From Mycolicibacterium smegmatis (GTDB lineage Bacteria; Actinomycetota; Actinomycetes; Mycobacteriales; Mycobacteriaceae), in contig NZ_LN831039.1 in NCBI RefSeq assembly GCF_001457595.1, positions 6,450,001-6,482,000 of the forward strand: DNA of 32,000 nt, read 5' to 3'. The notes beneath the pieces are model-generated. The model had not been told where the DNA came from, made no database searches, and was given only the letters and a program-made list of their open reading frames with translations. Every line of letters starts with the position of its first letter. Positions within the stretch are counted from its first letter, which is position 1. Positions 59 through 29,647 of the stretch are shown in pieces. Both the position numbers and the translations under genes were made by a program.

Positions 59-1390
59 ATGAAAATCGGCTCACGCAGGGTCTCGCTGCGCAACACGCAC
101 AAGTACTCCTGGGTCTCGCTCGGTGTGTGCTGGCTGATCTGGGTGCTCAACGCCTACGACCGCGAGATCATCCTGCGGCTCGGCCCCACCATCTCCGAGC
201 ACTTCGACTTCAGCCCCGACACCTGGGGTGCCATCGCATCGCTCATCATGATCTCGCTCGCGGTGCTGGCCATCCCGGGTTCCACGCTCAGCGACCGGTA
301 CGGCGGCGGCTGGAAACGTGCCCGCTTCCAGGTTCCGCTCGTGATCGGTTACACCGCACTGTCTTTCGTCTCCGGACTGAAGGCCGTCAGCTCGCACGCC
401 GCGGCGTTCATCGCGCTGCGCGTCGGGGTCAACCTCGGCGCAGGCTGGGGTGAACCGGTCGGCGTCAGCAACACCGCCGAGTGGTGGCCCAAGGAGCGAC
501 GCGGCTTCGCACTGGGCGCCCACCACACCGGCTATCCGGTCGGATCGCTGCTCAGCGGCCTGGCGGCAGCCGCGGTGATAGCCGCGTTCGGCCCCGAGAA
601 CTGGTCGTATGCATTGTTCCTCGGCCTGATCGTCGCGGTGCCGCTCATGATCTTCTGGGGCCGCTACTCGACCGCGGAGCGCATCAGCACCCTCTACGAG
701 GACATCGCCGCCAAGGGACTCACCCCGCCCGAGGGTGACGAGGCACGGGCGGCCTCCGGCGGAAAGGGCCTGATCGGGGCGTGCTTCAAGATCCGCAGCA
801 TCAATCTCACCGCGCTCACGACGCTGCTCACCCAGGTCGTCTACATGGGCATCAACGTCGTGCTGCCCGCCTACCTGTACAACGTCGTCGGGTTGTCGCT
901 GGCCGAATCGGCCGGGCTGAGCGTCGTGTTCGCCTTCACCGGCGTCCTGGGGCAGATCTTGTGGCCCACGCTGTCCGACGTCATCGGCCGCAAGTCCACG
1001 ATCATGATCTGTGGCATCTGGATGGCCATCAGCGTCGCATGCTTCTACTTCGCGACGTCGTCAGTGCTCGTCGTCGTGATCCAACTGGCGTTCGGTGTGG
1101 TCGCCAACGCCGTGTGGCCCATCTACTACGCCGCAGCGTCCGACGCCGCACCCGAGGGCGCCGTGTCGACGGCCAACGGGATCATCACCACGGCGATGTT
1201 CATCGGCGGCGGCATCGCCCCGCTGCTCATGGGCAGGCTGATCGCCGTCGGCGGCGGCTGGGAGGCCCACCGCGGCTACATCATCTGCTTCTTCGTGATG
1301 TCGGCCTGCGCGCTGGCCGGCGCACTGCTCCAGATCTTCCTGCGCCGCCCGGCCATCGAGGAAGAGGAGCCCGTGCTCGCGTCTTCGTGA
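59..1390 (+). CDS. MFS-type membrane transporter (443 aa)
   Basis: ATG at 59 with AAGGA at 47-51. Multiple long hydrophobic segments. MFS loop 2-3 type motif GSTLSDRYGGGWKR. The frame has GC-rich third positions, and the other frames over this span give Arg/Pro/Gly-rich nonsense. Confidence 0.85.
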   Translation: MKIGSRRVSLRNTHKYSWVSLGVCWLIWVLNAYDREIILRLGPTISEHFDFSPDTWGAIASLIMISLAVLAIPGSTLSDRYGGGWKRARFQVPLVIGYTALSFVSGLKAVSSHAAAFIALRVGVNLGAGWGEPVGVSNTAEWWPKERRGFALGAHHTGYPVGSLLSGLAAAAVIAAFGPENWSYALFLGLIVAVPLMIFWGRYSTAERISTLYEDIAAKGLTPPEGDEARAASGGKGLIGACFKIRSINLTALTTLLTQVVYMGINVVLPAYLYNVVGLSLAESAGLSVVFAFTGVLGQILWPTLSDVIGRKSTIMICGIWMAISVACFYFATSSVLVVVIQLAFGVVANAVWPIYYAAASDAAPEGAVSTANGIITTAMFIGGGIAPLLMGRLIAVGGGWEAHRGYIICFFVMSACALAGALLQIFLRRPAIEEEEPVLASS

Positions 1391-1410
1391 CCTCTGACAT
1401 CCGGGAGCGA

Positions 1411-1725
1411 TCAGTCCGTTCCTCCGACGGAACTGTCGAGGGCTCCGCCGGCTTCGTGATCCCGTCGTTCGTAGACATCGGCGGCAGTTCGCAGCCTGTC
1501 CCTGAGGCCTGTCAGATCGGTGCGTAACCGTTCTGCCTGAGAATGAGCGATGTCCACGAACTTGGCGAAACCTGGGGTGCCGGCTTCTTTCCACGCCGTC
1601 GTCTGGCCCGAGATGCCGTCAGCCATCGCCGTACGGCTGGACGAGGCCTCATGCGCAACCACGTCCATCTGGTCGGCCGAGCGGCGCACCTCGGCCGGCG
1701 TCACGTGTAGCTCAGGGTTCGTCAC
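1411..1725 (-). CDS. Small (104 aa) EspC/DUF2580-like helical protein with C-terminal YxxxD motif; putative type VII secretion target/partner
   Basis: In-frame GTG at 1725-1723 is preceded by GGGGAGGA and overlaps the upstream gene's TGA (GTGA, 1722-1725). Sequence VTNPELHVTPAEV...LRTAADVYERRDHEAGG resembles the layout of M. tuberculosis EspC (LTVQPERL...AAKIYSEADEA), including Y-x-x-x-D (codons 1459-1473). The 193-aa ORF in the track (to 1992) would overlap the lipoprotein gene and its extension is Arg/Gly-rich junk. Confidence 0.6.
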   Translation of the reverse strand: MTNPELHVTPAEVRRSADQMDVVAHEASSSRTAMADGISGQTTAWKEAGTPGFAKFVDIAHSQAERLRTDLTGLRDRLRTAADVYERRDHEAGGALDSSVGGTD

Positions 1726-2351
1726 GATCCTCCCCTGCCCGTCGTTCTGGTGGGAACAGGTCCAGTTGTGGTCGGCAAGGGCGACGGCGCCGGTGTAGCG
1801 GTGGTGGCCGAACGGCGGCACTCGATTCTTCCGGCAATAACCGACGCTTCCGCAGTCCCGAATACAAGTGTCCGCCCGTCGTCGCTGCTGAACCGCACGT
1901 CGTGATTCCGACTGGCGTTCGCCATCACCGTGACGGTTCCCAGACCGGACTCCCTGGTCAGCCTCTCCACTACCGGGAATGCCGCTGCCCACTCGTCATC
2001 GGTGAGTGGGGCATCTGAGATGAGATTCTGTGTAGCCAGCGAAACGCCGCGGAGGCCACTTTCTTTCTGTACACATCCTGATCGAGATTCTTCACGGTTC
2101 CACCGCCAGGGTTGAGTCGCCGGTGCAAGCCGGGAAACTTCGTCACGCACCCGCTCCATCAGGTCCAACATTTCAATCCTGGAGTGCTCAATATCAGGGA
2201 GATCGGTCAAGTTGGCCACAGGTACATCCTCATTCAGAATCGGCGAGTCATATCCGCCATCGCCGTTACCACCACCGCATGCTGCGGCCACCATCAGGAC
2301 CACACACGCCATTGCGCCTCGGATCCGTCTTGACGGGATTTGATTCGTCAA
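1722..2351 (-). CDS. Putative secreted lipoprotein (209 aa)
   Basis: TTG start at 2351-2349 overlaps the hydrolase TGA (TTGA). N-terminus has a basic n-region (PSRRIRG, twin-Arg), a hydrophobic core (MACVVLMVAAA), then Cys25 followed by GGG (lipobox-like A-A-A-C, Cys codon 2277-2279). Thr/Pro-rich C-terminal tail. The next in-frame ATG (M14) would leave no charged n-region, which favours the TTG. Confidence 0.65.
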   Translation of the reverse strand: MTNQIPSRRIRGAMACVVLMVAAACGGGNGDGGYDSPILNEDVPVANLTDLPDIEHSRIEMLDLMERVRDEVSRLAPATQPWRWNREESRSGCVQKESGLRGVSLATQNLISDAPLTDDEWAAAFPVVERLTRESGLGTVTVMANASRNHDVRFSSDDGRTLVFGTAEASVIAGRIECRRSATTATPAPSPLPTTTGPVPTRTTGRGGS

Positions 2352-4171
2352 CGCACCAACCTGTCCTCTCCATTCGGGCCCGGGACATCTGCGAGCCCTG
2401 CGGCGATCACCGCCAGGTTGTACGCAGGAGTTCTCAACACCTTCTCACCGCTTGGTAGTTCGACCGGACGCGGGTAATCCGCGTGAGCAACGGCCCCCTC
2501 GCGTGATACTCCATCCGGCGTCACTGCAGCATCCGCCGACAACTGTTCCAACGGGAGCGTCAAGGGGTTGGGCCCGAACTGGCCAAGGTCCCCTGCTGAC
2601 GGCAGCGGTACGCCATTCCACGTGGGATCACCAGAAATCGGGTCGCCTGGCGCTGACATCACAAATGCACGGCCGTCGGCGAGAAACATGTCTGACTCAT
2701 CTCGGATCGGTGCCATAACCTCGATCGGCACCCCTCGCGGAGAGATGTAGGTCTCGGTCGAGTCAGTGTGGCCGAGACCAGGCGAGCCGTAGAAAGCGGC
2801 ATCGTCGACGACGCCGGTTTCGCCGAGCTCATAGAGGGCCTGGGCTGTGGTCAACGAACCATACGAATGACCGAAAGCCGACAAGTGGACGTCTGAGCCG
2901 TGTTCGTTCGTTGCGTTGATTCCACGATAGAAGTCGGCGAGATCCGGCGCAGCCTCGTTCGCTCTACGCTCGAAGCCGGCTTCCGCGACCGAAATATCGG
3001 TTCCGGGCGGCTCGTAGCCAAGCCACGCAATTGTGGCGACCTGCTCACCACTCCGTCCGGCCCGGTCGAGTTGCGTCTGAGCCTCCTGACGTAGGGCATC
3101 GGCTTCACTCACCATGCCACCCAGGCTTTCGGGCCTTGTACCGACGCCAGGTGTCGTCACGGTGACGTGTTCAGCCGTGTCCGGATTGCCTACGGCTATG
3201 GCAGCTCGCGGCTCGCGATCCTCCGGGAACTCCAGCAGCATCAGATACTTGTTCGGGTCATACTTCCCATCAACGGACAGGGCATCTTTCATCGCTTTGG
3301 CATCGTCGAGACGCCCTTGCCGCTCGAACATCATCTTGTTGTACGCGGCGTTCAACTGTGCACCGTTCCATCCTGGATGCTCCCGCCGGAACTCATCTCG
3401 GCTCGGCATCGCGTCGACGGCGGCTTGCGCCTCAGCGAGTTCCCGATCCAACGCTGCCTTGTTCACTTCACTGCGCACCGCCACGGGGACCCCATCCCGA
3501 TTTCCGATCCAGTCCGGGTGCTCGGAAATGACCTTGGCCTGTTCCTCTTCGGAAAGTGCGTTCCACCAGGCATTCACATTCTCGGGGCTTACGCCTTCAC
3601 CTTCCGGCGGGTAGGGAGCGGACAATCCTGACTGTTCGCGGCCCATCTCTTGCGCCGAAGCGAAATCGGAGGAGCCGCGCGCCGTTACGTCACCATTTTC
3701 GATGTGGCCGAACACCTCTGCACAGTCGGCATCGATGTCCTCTGCCTGATGGATCAGTGCCTTTGCGCGGGCTTCGATGTTCTCCGCGATGTGCTTCAGT
3801 TGTTCACGGTCGTCCGGCGACCCGCCGATCGTGACATCGCCGTTGTCCGCGAGGTGGAGCAACCCGCCCTGCGCGGCGACGTCTGCGCGGACGGCCTCGA
3901 GTTGGGATTGAAGCTTCGCGACTGCCGCCGCTGTTTCATCGGCGAGTTGAGCGACAGCTCCGATCACCGCCGCGTCGTCCAAGACGTTCGCCTTGGCCGT
4001 CCCGATACGCCCCCTGGCTGCGTCTGCGGCAGGAGAGTCCCAGCCCGGCAGCCTGGAGATCAACTCCAAGTCGGTCGCGACGCCCTCGATCGTCCTGAGC
4101 TCGTCACGCAACTCGAAAGCGATGGACTGCAATGCGCCCACGTTCCACGAGTCGATGTCGCTCAGTTGCAC
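2348..4171 (-). CDS. 607-aa fusion protein: N-terminal WXG-like helical hairpin plus C-terminal alpha/beta hydrolase (DUF1023/Abhydrolase_8-like)
   Basis: GTG at 4171-4169 preceded by AGGGGGA. N-terminal ~100 aa is alanine-rich helix / turn (LPGWDSPAADAA, W44 codon 4040-4042) / helix. Segment WWNALSEEEQAKVISEHPDWIGNRDGVPVAVRSEVNKAAL is followed by a hydrolase core with nucleophile elbow G-H-S-Y-G (2858-2872, Ser436 codon 2864-2866), then YGSPG and a C-terminal H-A-D-Y. This pattern is what I recall for the actinobacterial DUF1023 family. Confidence 0.8.
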   Translation of the reverse strand: MQLSDIDSWNVGALQSIAFELRDELRTIEGVATDLELISRLPGWDSPAADAARGRIGTAKANVLDDAAVIGAVAQLADETAAAVAKLQSQLEAVRADVAAQGGLLHLADNGDVTIGGSPDDREQLKHIAENIEARAKALIHQAEDIDADCAEVFGHIENGDVTARGSSDFASAQEMGREQSGLSAPYPPEGEGVSPENVNAWWNALSEEEQAKVISEHPDWIGNRDGVPVAVRSEVNKAALDRELAEAQAAVDAMPSRDEFRREHPGWNGAQLNAAYNKMMFERQGRLDDAKAMKDALSVDGKYDPNKYLMLLEFPEDREPRAAIAVGNPDTAEHVTVTTPGVGTRPESLGGMVSEADALRQEAQTQLDRAGRSGEQVATIAWLGYEPPGTDISVAEAGFERRANEAAPDLADFYRGINATNEHGSDVHLSAFGHSYGSLTTAQALYELGETGVVDDAAFYGSPGLGHTDSTETYISPRGVPIEVMAPIRDESDMFLADGRAFVMSAPGDPISGDPTWNGVPLPSAGDLGQFGPNPLTLPLEQLSADAAVTPDGVSREGAVAHADYPRPVELPSGEKVLRTPAYNLAVIAAGLADVPGPNGEDRLVR

Positions 4172-4294
4172 CCGATCCCCCTGGCATCACGTCAGGAAAT
4201 ATCTTATCCGCGCGTTTGCTGGCCCCATGCACCAAGTTCGCCGCCAGGTGAAGCTGCTCGAAACCGCGCCGAGAGGGACGAAAATGTCGTCCAC

Positions 4295-4314
4295 AAACGC
4301 TGTGAACAGCATTT
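4295..4314. promoter_or_regulatory. Imperfect palindrome AAACGCTGT-GA-ACAGCATTT in the divergent hydrolase/dprE1 intergenic region
   Basis: 9-nt arms match 8/9 with a 2-nt spacer. It ends 39 nt upstream of the dprE1 ATG (4353). No cognate regulator is identified. Confidence 0.25.
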
Positions 4315-4352
4315 ACGTCGATTTCGGCGGGTAAGACGACAGGTTGCGGGCA

Positions 4353-5759
4353 ATGGGCGCGGTACCCTCACTGACGATGTCAACGACCGAGTTTCCGACC
4401 ACCACCAAGCGCCTGATGGGCTGGGGGCGCACCGCGCCGACCGTCGCTTCGGTGCTCTCGACCAGCGACCCCGAGGTCATCGTCCGCGCTGTCACACGGG
4501 CAGCCGAAGAGGGTGGTCGTGGCGTCATCGCACGCGGGCTCGGACGCTCGTACGGGGACAACGCGCAGAACGGTGGCGGGCTGGTGATCGACATGCCCGC
4601 GCTCAACCGCATCCACTCGATCGACTCGGGCACCCGGCTGGTCGACGTCGACGCCGGGGTGAGCCTGGACCAGTTGATGAAAGCCGCGCTGCCCCACGGC
4701 TTGTGGGTTCCTGTGCTGCCCGGCACGCGCCAGGTCACGGTCGGCGGCGCGATCGGCTGCGACATCCACGGCAAGAACCACCACAGCGCAGGCAGTTTCG
4801 GCAACCACGTGCGTTCGATGGAACTGCTCACAGCCAACGGCGAGGTGCGCCACCTGACCCCCACGGGAGCGGACTCGGACCTGTTCTGGGCGACCGTCGG
4901 CGGCAACGGCCTGACCGGCATCATCCTGCGCGCCACGATCGAGATGACGCCGACGGAGACCGCGTACTTCATCGCCGACGGCGACGTCACGGGCAGCCTC
5001 GACGAGACCATCGCGTTCCACAGCGACGGCAGCGAGGCGAACTACACGTACTCGAGCGCGTGGTTCGACGCGATCAGCAAGCCGCCGAAACTCGGCCGCG
5101 CCGCGATATCGCGCGGGTCCCTGGCCAAGCTCGACCAGTTGCCACCCAAGCTGCAGAAGGATCCACTGAAATTCGATGCGCCGCAACTGCTCACGTTGCC
5201 GGACATCTTCCCGAACGGCCTGGCCAACAAGTTCACGTTCATGCCGATCGGCGAGCTGTGGTACCGCAAGTCGGGTACGTACCGCAACAAGGTGCAGAAC
5301 CTGACGCAGTTCTACCATCCGCTCGACATGTTCGGTGAGTGGAACCGCGCCTACGGTTCGGCGGGTTTCCTGCAGTACCAGTTCGTGGTCCCCACCGAGG
5401 CCGTCGACGAGTTCAAGAGCATCATCGTCGACATCCAGCGGTCCGGGCACTACTCGTTCCTCAACGTGTTCAAGCTGTTCGGCCCGGGCAACCAGGCGCC
5501 GCTGAGCTTCCCGATCCCGGGCTGGAACGTGTGCGTGGACTTCCCGATCAAGGCGGGACTTCACGAGTTCGTCACCGAACTCGACAGGCGCGTACTGGAG
5601 TTCGGTGGCAGGCTGTACACGGCGAAGGACTCGCGCACCACGGCCGAGACCTTCCACGCGATGTACCCGCGCATCGACGAGTGGATCAGGATCCGCCGCA
5701 GCGTGGACCCGGACGGCGTCTTCGCGTCCGACATGGCCAGGCGCCTGCAACTGCTCTGA
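4353..5759 (+). CDS. dprE1: Decaprenylphosphoryl-beta-D-ribose 2'-oxidase DprE1 (FAD-dependent)
   Basis: Near-colinear identity to the recalled M. tuberculosis Rv3790 sequence ([85 protein letters not shown]). The track ORF begins at TTG 4344, but the ATG at 4353 (MGAVPS...) is the likelier start. It puts the conserved Cys at position 394, as I recall for M. smegmatis. Confidence 0.96.
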
Positions 5760-5823: not shown

Positions 5824-6285
5824 GTGAACCACACGACCGACTTCGAGCAGCTGCTTCGAAGTGCCGGCATGCGGGTGACCCGTCCCCGCATCGCGGTGTT
5901 GCGGGCCGTGTACGCACACCCGCACGCCGATACCGACACGGTCATCCGCGCGGTGCGCGAGGACCTGCCCGAGGTGTCGCACCAGGCGGTCTACGACTCG
6001 CTGCACGCGCTGGATGCGGCGCGCCTGGTGCGCCGCATCCAGCCGTCAGGTTCGGTGGCGCGCTACGAATCTCGCGTCGGCGACAACCATCACCACGTGG
6101 TCTGCCGGACGTGCGGCGACATCGCCGACGTGGACTGCGCGGTCGGCGATGCCCCGTGCCTGGCCGCGTCAGACCACCACGGCTACGCCATCGACGAGGC
6201 CGAGGTCATCTACTGGGGCACGTGCCCGGCGTGCGCGCAGGACCCCCACCGTGCGCAAGCACCAACTTCCCGATCACACCCGTGA
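5824..6285 (+). CDS. furA: Fur-family redox regulator FurA
   Basis: GTG start. Winged-helix N-terminus (RVTRPRIAVLRAV). HHHHVVC-RTCG and C-PAC metal-site motifs (CxxC...CxxC). Position immediately upstream of katG. Confidence 0.93.
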   Translation: MNHTTDFEQLLRSAGMRVTRPRIAVLRAVYAHPHADTDTVIRAVREDLPEVSHQAVYDSLHALDAARLVRRIQPSGSVARYESRVGDNHHHVVCRTCGDIADVDCAVGDAPCLAASDHHGYAIDEAEVIYWGTCPACAQDPHRAQAPTSRSHP

Positions 6286-8541
<2,256 letters not shown>

Positions 8542-8670: not shown

Positions 8671-9435
8671 ATGGTGTTCGACGCCGTAGGTAACCCCCAG
8701 ACGATCCTGCTGCTCGGCGGCACCTCCGAGATCGGGCTGGCAATCTGTGAGCGCTATCTGCGCAACGCATCCGCGCGCATCGTGCTGGCCGTGATGCCGG
8801 GAGATCCCGGCCGCGACGCGGCCGTGGAACAGATGCGCAAAGCCGGTGCGAGCGCGGTGGACGTGGTCGATTTCGACGCGCTCGACACCGAGAGCCACCC
8901 CGCGGTGATCGACCAGGCGTTCGCAGGCGGTGACGTGGATGTGGCGATCGTCGCATTCGGTCTGCTGGGTGACGCCGAGGAACTGTGGCAGAACCAGCGC
9001 AAGGCCGTGCAGATCGCCGGGGTCAACTACACCGCGGCGGTGTCGGTCGGCGTGCTGCTGGGCGAGAAGATGCGCGCACAGGGCTCCGGGCAGATCATCG
9101 CGATGAGCTCGGCGGCCGGTGAGCGCGTGCGCCGCTCCAACTTCGTCTACGGCTCCACCAAGGCCGGCCTGGACGGCTTCTACCTGGGCCTGGGCGAGGC
9201 CCTGCGCGAGTTCGGTGTGCGGGTGCTGGTGATCCGCCCCGGTCAGGTGCGCACCCGCATGAGCGCCCACGTCAAAGAGGCGCCGCTGACCGTGGACAAG
9301 GAGTACGTCGCCGAACTCGCGGTCACCGCGTCGGCGAAGGGCAAGGAACTGGTTTGGGCGCCAGGCGCATTCCGGTACGTGATGATGGTGTTGCGTCACA
9401 TCCCGCGACCCATCTTCCGCAAGCTCCCCATCTGA
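8671..9435 (+). CDS. dprE2: Decaprenylphosphoryl-2-keto-ribose reductase DprE2 (SDR family)
   Basis: ATG at 8671. GGTSEIG nucleotide-binding motif and YGSTKAG (YxxxK). Near-identity to the recalled Rv3791 sequence (254 aa, same length, ...[13 protein letters not shown]). Confidence 0.96.
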
Positions 9436-22543: not shown

Positions 22544-22574
22544 TGCAGGAGGATCGGGCCTCTTCGTGGGACGT

Positions 22575-29647
<7,073 letters not shown>

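Follow-up and report, generated by a model that had tools for sequence, protein, structure and literature searches.

Introduction

An Esx-associated toxin locus was first shown in mycobacteria with EatA/TapA1-TapA2/EatI of Mycobacterium abscessus, where delivery of EatA depends on ESX-4, its toxicity depends on the catalytic residue and a lipoprotein inhibitor associated with the membrane provides rescue (Benedict et al., Nat Commun 2026, PMC13444075). CpnT is cited in the same paper as ESX-4-dependent (PMC13444075), and a preprint that followed it up lends support to a stacked bundle of helices formed by the toxin N-terminus and its partners (bioRxiv 10.64898/2026.08.24.746431). A cassette of related layout is described here from Mycolicibacterium smegmatis. 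It lies in a stretch of 32,000 nucleotides (contig NZ_LN831039.1, positions 6,450,001 to 6,482,000 of the forward strand), which as a whole is called the window and in whose own numbering coordinates are given, and it encodes an alpha/beta hydrolase, a lipoprotein of the LppA family and a small EspC-like protein. By analogy with the described systems, it is reasonably probable that the hydrolase is an envelope-acting serine esterase or lipase toxin, exported by a secretion system of type VII (T7SS) and neutralised by its lipoprotein.

According to a survey in the EatA paper, the payloads predicted most often are alpha/beta hydrolases, HNH/Endo nucleases, NlpC/P60 and TNT, with lipoprotein or transmembrane immunities where the targets are extracellular (PMC13444075). 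An initial annotation of the window, made from its letters, had called an enzyme fused to a WXG-type hairpin unusual in mycobacteria, a view that EatA and this survey have overtaken (PMC13444075).

The window cassette is like the EatA locus in combining an elongated N-terminal helical domain, a small WXG100-family partner, a predicted C-terminal envelope enzyme and a downstream lipoprotein gene. The gene for the putative helical-bundle toxin has a small WXG100-family gene for a neighbour, and the candidate immunity gene downstream, which overlaps it and encodes a predicted lipoprotein, has a topology that fits the compartment in which the toxin would act. The two loci differ in payload, which is a GH183 arabinanase in EatA and a DUF1023 serine hydrolase here, and in the presumed inhibitor, which has the EatI fold in the former and belongs to the LppA family in the latter.

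In Staphylococcus aureus, the T7SSb phospholipase A toxin TslA is accompanied by the immunity lipoprotein TilA and by TlaA1-TlaA2 (Garrett et al., Nat Commun 2023, PMC10730906). This system shares with the cassette a lipase-type toxin exported by a T7SS, a lipoprotein neutraliser and small helical partners. However, it is a T7SSb of the Bacillota in which the domain order is reversed, the lipase being N-terminal and the LXG-like domain C-terminal, and no sequence relationship between the TslA system and the window cassette was detected in this analysis. A further parallel is offered by the Tle/Tli pairs of the type VI secretion system (T6SS), in which a GxSxG alpha/beta-hydrolase effector acts in the target periplasm or membrane and is countered by a periplasmic immunity protein, although the secretion system is a different one and there is no family match with the window hydrolase.

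In the mycobacterial ESX substrates PE/PPE, EsxA/EsxB and EspA/EspC, one protein bears WxG and its partner YxxxD/E, and LipY is a lipase fused to a PE domain. The cassette resembles these pairs in its bipartite signal, with the WxG-like element on the large protein and YxxxD on the small EspC-family one. The catalytic domain of LipY comes from another alpha/beta-hydrolase family than that of the window hydrolase, and LipY is not known to have a lipoprotein inhibitor.

A translationally coupled operon

Positions 1411-4171 of the minus strand are one translationally coupled operon, headed by the hydrolase gene. The three genes are listed below, with product lengths in amino acids (aa).

2348-4171, minus strand: hydrolase gene (predicted T7SS-exported serine hydrolase, putative toxin), 607 aa, GTG start, no general secretion (Sec) or twin-arginine translocation (Tat) signal
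1722-2351, minus strand: LppA-family lipoprotein gene (predicted cognate inhibitor or immunity protein), 209 aa, TTG start
1411-1725, minus strand: gene for the EspC/WXG100-family helical partner, 104 aa, GTG start

The stop codon of the hydrolase gene overlaps the TTG start of the lipoprotein gene by 4 nucleotides (TTGA), and the stop of the latter overlaps the GTG start of the partner gene to the same extent (GTGA). These overlaps at both junctions support an immunity function for the lipoprotein, as does the position of a hydrolase lacking a signal peptide beside a gene for an extracytoplasmic lipoprotein. A scan of positions 1200-4500 for promoters and terminators gave nothing exceeding shuffled expectation. 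What this analysis establishes is the arrangement of domains, the fold, the retention of the catalytic residues, the structure of the operon and the joint inheritance of its three genes in many genera.

The open reading frame (ORF) that the initial annotation had placed at 2348-4171 is borne out; it lies on the minus strand and has a product of 607 aa. The product matches Abhydrolase_8/DUF1023 (PF06259) over aa 321-472 (E 1.1e-39, 136.3 bits against a cut-off of 20.5), a word-indexed search returned 276 homologues, and an exhaustive profile search of the family reached 6,200 cluster representatives at E<=1e-3, 1,872 of them at E<=1e-30. Because of the Pfam match, the homologues and a confident AlphaFold2 model, the frame is regarded as a real gene and not as a chance ORF of GC-rich DNA, and the GTG start is supported since the alignments of orthologues begin at residue 1.

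The lipoprotein belongs to the Pfam family LppA (PF16708; E 7.5e-29, 101.1 bits against a cut-off of 26.4). Its signal peptide (2277-2351) ends in the lipobox Cys25 (2277-2279) and has an n-region, S-R-R-I-R, that is loosely twin-arginine-like, so that export might proceed by Tat, not Sec. Cys93 and Cys178 are invariant in the alignment. In the AlphaFold2 model the core has a predicted local distance difference test score (pLDDT) of >90, and a Foldseek search with this model retrieved Mycobacterium tuberculosis LppA (2v7s, itself of PF16708), on which the window protein superposes (probability 1.00, E 3.6e-3), and the DUF4853 protein 4mjg (E 1.2e-4), both of them structures without an assigned function. 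Neither the single lipoprotein sequence nor a profile of the window subfamily recovered 2v7s. The failure of the profile places the window lipoprotein at a distance from 2v7s, and a sequence-level link to the M. tuberculosis structure was rejected, since the fold search alone recovers it. In M. tuberculosis, lppA/lppB or lppJ presumably stand beside DUF1023 genes (Rv2541-2542, Rv2079), an arrangement for which the literature offered no usable match. In one review, Rv2079 is listed as a predicted esterase.

The product of the third gene matches T7SS_ESX_EspC (PF10824; E 1.6e-24, 86.7 bits against a cut-off of 23.5) and WXG100 (E 7.2e-8, 33 bits), with TIGR03930 below its cut-off. It carries W45 (1591-1593) and a C-terminal YERRD (aa 85-89, 1459-1473), which has the form of the YxxxD export motif. 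The consensus of the EspC-like family reads W...Y...D, with Y...D present in 70% or more of its 55 members.

The public gene call of a Joint Genome Institute metagenome contig identical to the window (L081, 2813-3340) omits the TTG-start lipoprotein gene and begins the EspC-like gene further upstream, giving a product of 136 aa. Annotation pipelines may under-report the lipoprotein.

The hydrolase module

An AlphaFold2 model of the hydrolase, built from an alignment of 45 sequences, has a mean pLDDT of 92.4 and a predicted template modelling score of 0.87. From the N-terminus it consists of a helix (11-39), a turn with W44, a second helix (47-99), a beta-hairpin (105-115) and a third helix (119-158), followed by a compact helical region (196-298, pLDDT >90) and an alpha/beta core (300-590). 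The features of the C-terminal part are as follows.

2351-3619, minus strand: conserved hydrolase module, aa ~185-607, helical subdomain 196-298 and alpha/beta core
2858-2872, minus strand: nucleophile elbow GHSYG (aa 434-438), with S436 at 2864-2866, preceded by strand 429-435 and followed by helix 437-449
2642-2644, minus strand: candidate acid D510, after strand 502-505, kept in 44 of 45 relatives
2483-2485, minus strand: candidate base H563, in a late loop, kept in 44 of 45 relatives

The predicted structure thus confirms the C-terminal part as an alpha/beta hydrolase with a conserved Ser436-Asp510-His563 candidate triad. PF06259 is matched by all 45 aligned relatives, in which GHSYGS and YGSPG (aa 461-465) are invariant. 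At E<=0.001, Foldseek searches of the PDB returned mostly alpha/beta-fold enzymes (the arylesterase 5l2p, dienelactone hydrolases, polyhydroxyalkanoate (PHA) synthase and esterases of the hormone-sensitive lipase type), with PETase and cutinase types just above that value, and the viral library BFVD likewise gave generic alpha/beta-fold matches.

The initial annotation had drawn a hydrolase core with Ser436 in GHSYG and a candidate catalytic histidine in VAHADY (aa 561-566), and its motif assignments, including PGWDSP (aa 42-47, 4031-4048) and WWNALSEEEQ (aa 202-211), are exact. The fold itself is upheld by the PF06259 match and by PDB and BFVD matches that are mostly to esterases, dienelactone hydrolases, PHA synthase and cutinase-type enzymes, and the candidate catalytic residues by the invariance of Ser436 and by the retention of Asp510 and His563. 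Structure prediction, which it had named as a check, gives an alpha/beta-hydrolase fold and, at the N-terminus, a confident helix-turn-helix. The PDB matches are at <=16% identity and speak for the fold, not for a substrate class. What had been taken for a linker of ~190 aa is folded instead, comprising the third N-terminal helix and the ordered helical subdomain of the hydrolase module.

Two more specific assignments were considered and find no support. A Lysin B or cutinase-like mycolyl esterase was rejected, since the query has no Pfam Cutinase match and the best Lysin B in BFVD stands at E 0.11, rank 21; one relative reaches 23.6 bits with the Cutinase model, against a cut-off of 25.9. As for the Tle lipase families of the T6SS, the 45 relatives gave a single match, to Tle3, at a non-significant E of 0.096.

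The N-terminal targeting domain

The hydrolase module is preceded by a separate domain of three helices, modelled with pLDDT 83-96.

3677-4171, minus strand: N-terminal targeting domain, aa 1-165, with a W44-D-S turn (W44 at 4040-4042)

W44 is kept in 44 of 45 relatives, and residue 46 is serine in 26 of them and glycine in 18. In a search of the PDB with the family profile, the four best matches are ESAT-6-like/EsxA chains, aligned over positions 10-93 at a marginal E of 0.03-0.1. A direct assignment of the query N-terminus to WXG100 or LXG was rejected for want of a Pfam match to either, and the query fits no PE, PPE or WXG100 model. Among the N-termini of relatives, WXG100 scores range from 18.8 to 28.1 bits, two of them being 25.4 and 22.5, and the cut-off of 27.3 is passed only by a Nocardia variant (locus L050, 28.1 bits); LXG gives one sub-threshold match of 15.7 bits, in one Nocardia variant. 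Further relatives match WXG100_2 or PPE, and in P0110 a PPE-type N-terminus precedes the common hydrolase. The EsxA-type matches in the PDB, the W44/G46 pattern and the relatives that match known models together suggest that the N-terminus belongs with hairpins of the WXG100/EsxAB type. The WXG-like hairpin of the initial annotation is a confidently predicted helix-turn-helix with W44, and WxG is present in relatives; the query itself has W-D-S and no direct WXG100 match.

In tblastn searches, many loci of Rhodococcus, Nocardia, Gordonia and Williamsia align only from query residues 183-202 onwards. The N-termini of these lineages have a different sequence, with a canonical W-x-G-x-A-x-x-A at the equivalent place. 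Since the matches start at residues 183-202 and the N-termini differ, the hydrolase is considered modular, with an exchangeable targeting domain of ~165 aa and a hydrolase module of ~420 aa. These alignments put the exchange of N-terminal domains between lineages at about residue 185; a canonical WxG occurs in many of the variants.

The character of this domain bears on whether the hydrolase leaves the cytoplasm at all. It might be a cytoplasmic enzyme whose N-terminal helices form an oligomerisation coiled-coil, with the lipoprotein and EspC-like genes as unrelated passengers, and the lack of a significant Pfam WXG100 or LXG match in the query, together with the marginal nature of the EsxA-like matches, would be in keeping with this. 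However, relatives reach the WXG100, PPE or WXG100_2 models, the WxG and YxxxD/E motifs occur in every N-terminal variant and its partner, and the joint inheritance of the three genes, whose stop and start codons overlap, extends across orders, so that a cytoplasmic enzyme appears highly improbable.

Related loci across genera

Eighty loci with relatives of the hydrolase were compared, from Mycobacteriales and Pseudonocardiales (Mycolicibacterium/Mycobacterium, Nocardia, Rhodococcus, Gordonia, Williamsia, Segniliparus, Kibdelosporangium, Amycolatopsis and Prauserella). With an iterated profile, an LppA-like gene was found to adjoin the hydrolase gene in 73 of the 80, nearly always directly downstream and on the same strand. 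An EspC-like gene adjoins in about 52, and its position varies: the Mycolicibacterium orthologues have it downstream, Nocardia and Rhodococcus have it upstream and divergent, and in others it lies upstream on the same strand. In loci where the EspC profile finds no match, an ORF of ~100 aa abuts the start of a hydrolase with canonical WxG, and these ORFs carry the C-terminal motifs YDAAD, YDDAD, YQQRD, YDAAE, YAASE, YSGRE, YAANE and YRRDD. A small partner with YxxxD/E thus adjoins the hydrolase gene in almost every locus.

Within the cassette, conservation is lowest for the lipoprotein: among mycobacterial loci its identity is 41-57%, that of the hydrolase being 58-75% and that of DprE1 71-86%. 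In some loci the lipoprotein gene is also multiplied. Mycobacterium sp. MYCO198283 (L013, 7854-10014) has four tandem paralogues, of which three are mutually 83-88% identical and the fourth shares 42-45% identity with these; in a Gordonia locus (L031, 4724-5955) there are two tandem LppA-like copies at 65% identity, and Mycobacterium sp. SM1 (L072, 7845-10969) has one full-length and two partial copies. These tandem arrays resemble immunity-gene arrays.

A cassette of the same kind is found on plasmid pTY66_01 of Mycolicibacterium sp. TY66 (L082, 7052-9718), where a 'type VII secretion target' with YERAD is followed by an alpha/beta hydrolase with W-H-G and by a lipoprotein with an LAGC lipobox. 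The LppA profile does not recognise this lipoprotein. Toxin-antitoxin genes of the PIN/VapC and RES-Xre kinds flank this cassette.

The hydrolase module also occurs in giant proteins. In P0193 (4709 aa) and P0199 (4218 aa), an N-terminal WXG100_2 domain (E 1e-13 to 1e-16) is followed by four Abhydrolase_8 modules; both also contain domains named 'papain fold toxin 1 (glutamine deamidase)', and a GDPD domain is present in P0199. Comparable giants, 5,000-6,200 aa long and with the hydrolase module five or six times, are named from Mycolicibacterium peregrinum and Nocardia:

P0183/P0323: giant proteins of about 5000 aa, M. peregrinum, WP_064937207.1
P0187: giant protein of 6164 aa, Nocardia sp. 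CC227C

The mixture of domains in the giants shows the DUF1023 module in use as the cargo of polymorphic-toxin-like proteins and, on their domain composition, P0193, P0199 and their like look like multi-warhead T7SS toxins.

The export architecture would be identical if the hydrolase were an anti-eukaryotic ESX effector, a phospholipase or esterase directed at the membranes of amoebae or of a host, with the lipoprotein guarding the membrane of the producer during export. Mycobacterial ESX substrates of the CpnT/TNT type target eukaryotic cells, and the hydrolase family is found in soil actinomycetes that are exposed to grazing by protists. Against this, an inhibitor that is dedicated and faces the periplasm, and arrays whose copies diverge, are features of the protection of kin from incoming toxin, and the sole locus of this layout to have been tested experimentally is antibacterial; a eukaryotic target is accordingly considered distinctly improbable.

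Genomic setting and composition

The cassette is flanked by a convergent gene for a major facilitator superfamily (MFS) transporter and by the divergent dprE1 (4344-5759), beyond which lie furA-katG, a dprE2-like gene, aftA and embCAB. In 12 mycobacterial loci the cassette keeps this syntenic place beside dprE1, whereas the stored flanks of non-mycobacterial loci yielded no dprE1. The GC content at third codon positions (GC3) of the three cassette genes is 0.61-0.71, against 0.86-0.93 for the MFS gene, dprE1, furA, katG, the dprE2-like gene and embCAB. In most other Mycolicibacterium genomes the orthologous cassettes have a host-like GC3 of 0.8-0.9, and the low value here suggests, in combination with this, that the window allele was recently imported or replaced at a conserved site. 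A functional link to dprE1 was rejected on account of the divergent transcription, the foreign composition and the absence of dprE1 from the non-mycobacterial flanks. On the same grounds, the nearby arabinan and mycolate genes, which the initial annotation had used as a clue to the substrate, are a weak guide.

It is nevertheless in this setting that a role in the producer's own envelope has to be weighed. The hydrolase could be a self-directed envelope-remodelling esterase, exported by ESX or otherwise, with the LppA-like lipoprotein as its anchor, chaperone or regulator. The position beside dprE1 in 12 mycobacterial loci and near arabinan and mycolate genes would suit such an enzyme, as would the usually single-copy lipoprotein and the host-like GC3 of most orthologous cassettes, which suggests long residence. 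Yet the gene diverges from dprE1, which is missing from the stored flanks of other genera, and the window allele is compositionally foreign. Nor would remodelling account well for the swapping of N-terminal domains between lineages, the tandem lipoprotein arrays, the plasmid copies among toxin-antitoxin modules or the presence of the same module in giant WXG100-led proteins with annotated toxin domains. Self-directed remodelling is therefore held to be unlikely.

Two features of the surrounding sequence may be recorded. furA-katG (5824-8541) sits between dprE1 and the dprE2-like short-chain dehydrogenase/reductase gene (8671-9435), and so splits the decaprenylphosphoryl-arabinose epimerase genes. 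Towards the right end of the window, a 529-aa ORF on the plus strand (22566-24155) has no Pfam match, and a 517-aa ORF opposite it on the minus strand (22575-24128) may be the real gene; the pair just precedes a 1899-aa ORF and a gene for an AMP-binding enzyme.

Proposed mechanism

In the toxin-immunity model, the N-terminal three-helix domain, with its W44-D-S turn, would pair with the co-encoded 104-aa EspC/WXG100-family protein. The YERRD of this partner would serve as the YxxxD/E half of a bipartite T7SS signal, and the complex would be exported by ESX, most plausibly, by analogy, by ESX-4. Outside the cytoplasmic membrane, residues ~185-607, with Ser436-Asp510-His563, would cleave an ester (possibly an amide) bond of the envelope, the foremost guess being a lipid of the membrane or mycomembrane. 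The LppA-family lipoprotein, on the outer face of the plasma membrane, would bind and inhibit the hydrolase, and would in this way shield the producer and its kin.

Export by ESX, binding of the partner, inhibition by the lipoprotein, toxicity and the substrate are all what we infer from the architecture and its analogues. The sequence of ESX export, envelope hydrolysis and neutralisation by the lipoprotein is the simplest mechanism for a hydrolase with no Sec or Tat signal, a neighbouring extracytoplasmic lipoprotein, a WxG-like hairpin and a YxxxD partner. An envelope target is likely because the adjacent gene is that of a co-inherited lipoprotein and the third gene that of an EspC/WXG100 partner. 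The cell-envelope ester substrate raised in the initial annotation is thus retained as to the envelope, and the argument from gene neighbourhood on which it stood is set aside.

Several observations weigh against the toxin-immunity model. The turn of the query reads W-D-S, that is WxS and not WxG, and neither the whole protein nor aa 1-165 gives a Pfam match to WXG100 (PF06013) or LXG (PF04740); the profile matches to EsxA-like chains are marginal, and an hhalign comparison of the N-terminal profile with the EspC-like partner family is weak (P 4.5e-4 over 44 columns). The fold matches of the hydrolase, generic and of low identity, give no substrate. The gene order departs from that of EatA, which has two Tap genes upstream, where the window has one EspC-family partner, after the lipoprotein. 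There is no ESX locus within the 32-kb window, and the synteny with dprE1 also fits a vertically inherited housekeeping role. Lastly, literature searches found no paper characterising DUF1023 or LppA in a toxin or immunity role, and for this family the model would be one by analogy. A narrower claim, that the hydrolase is probably an ESX substrate with a cognate lipoprotein binder, is held with more confidence than the full model.

A broader one is doubtful, though it merits statement: DUF1023 hydrolases and LppA-family lipoproteins may be widely paired in the Mycobacteriales as toxin and immunity protein, with delivery by a T7SS, and the hydrolase would attack a lipid ester specific to the mycolate-containing envelope. 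Mycolyl-arabinogalactan, trehalose mycolates and a lipid of the plasma membrane would be examples of such a substrate.

Implications

The cassette extends a published class and does not open a new area, because the combination of an enzyme, a WXG-type handle, a helper and a lipoprotein immunity was published in 2026 and alpha/beta payloads had already been flagged. If the toxin-immunity model is true, the cassette would be a test case for a second class of enzymes among the antibacterial type VII toxins of mycobacteria, and would tie two large families, DUF1023/Abhydrolase_8, with about 6,200 cluster representatives, and the LppA lipoproteins, to one mechanism. The substrate would then mark a bond of the mycobacterial envelope whose cleavage is harmful, which would be useful in thinking about drug targets, and the pair of inhibitor and enzyme might find use as a tool.

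Should the pairing prove widespread, it would provide a naturally occurring enzyme able to breach the mycomembrane from the outer side, and a first function for the LppA family, whose founding M. tuberculosis structure, 2v7s, dates from 2008. The most interesting implication, if the model is true, is that the enzyme would cleave a bond peculiar to the mycobacterial envelope and that LppA-family lipoproteins, M. tuberculosis LppA included, would be immunity proteins against DUF1023 toxins.

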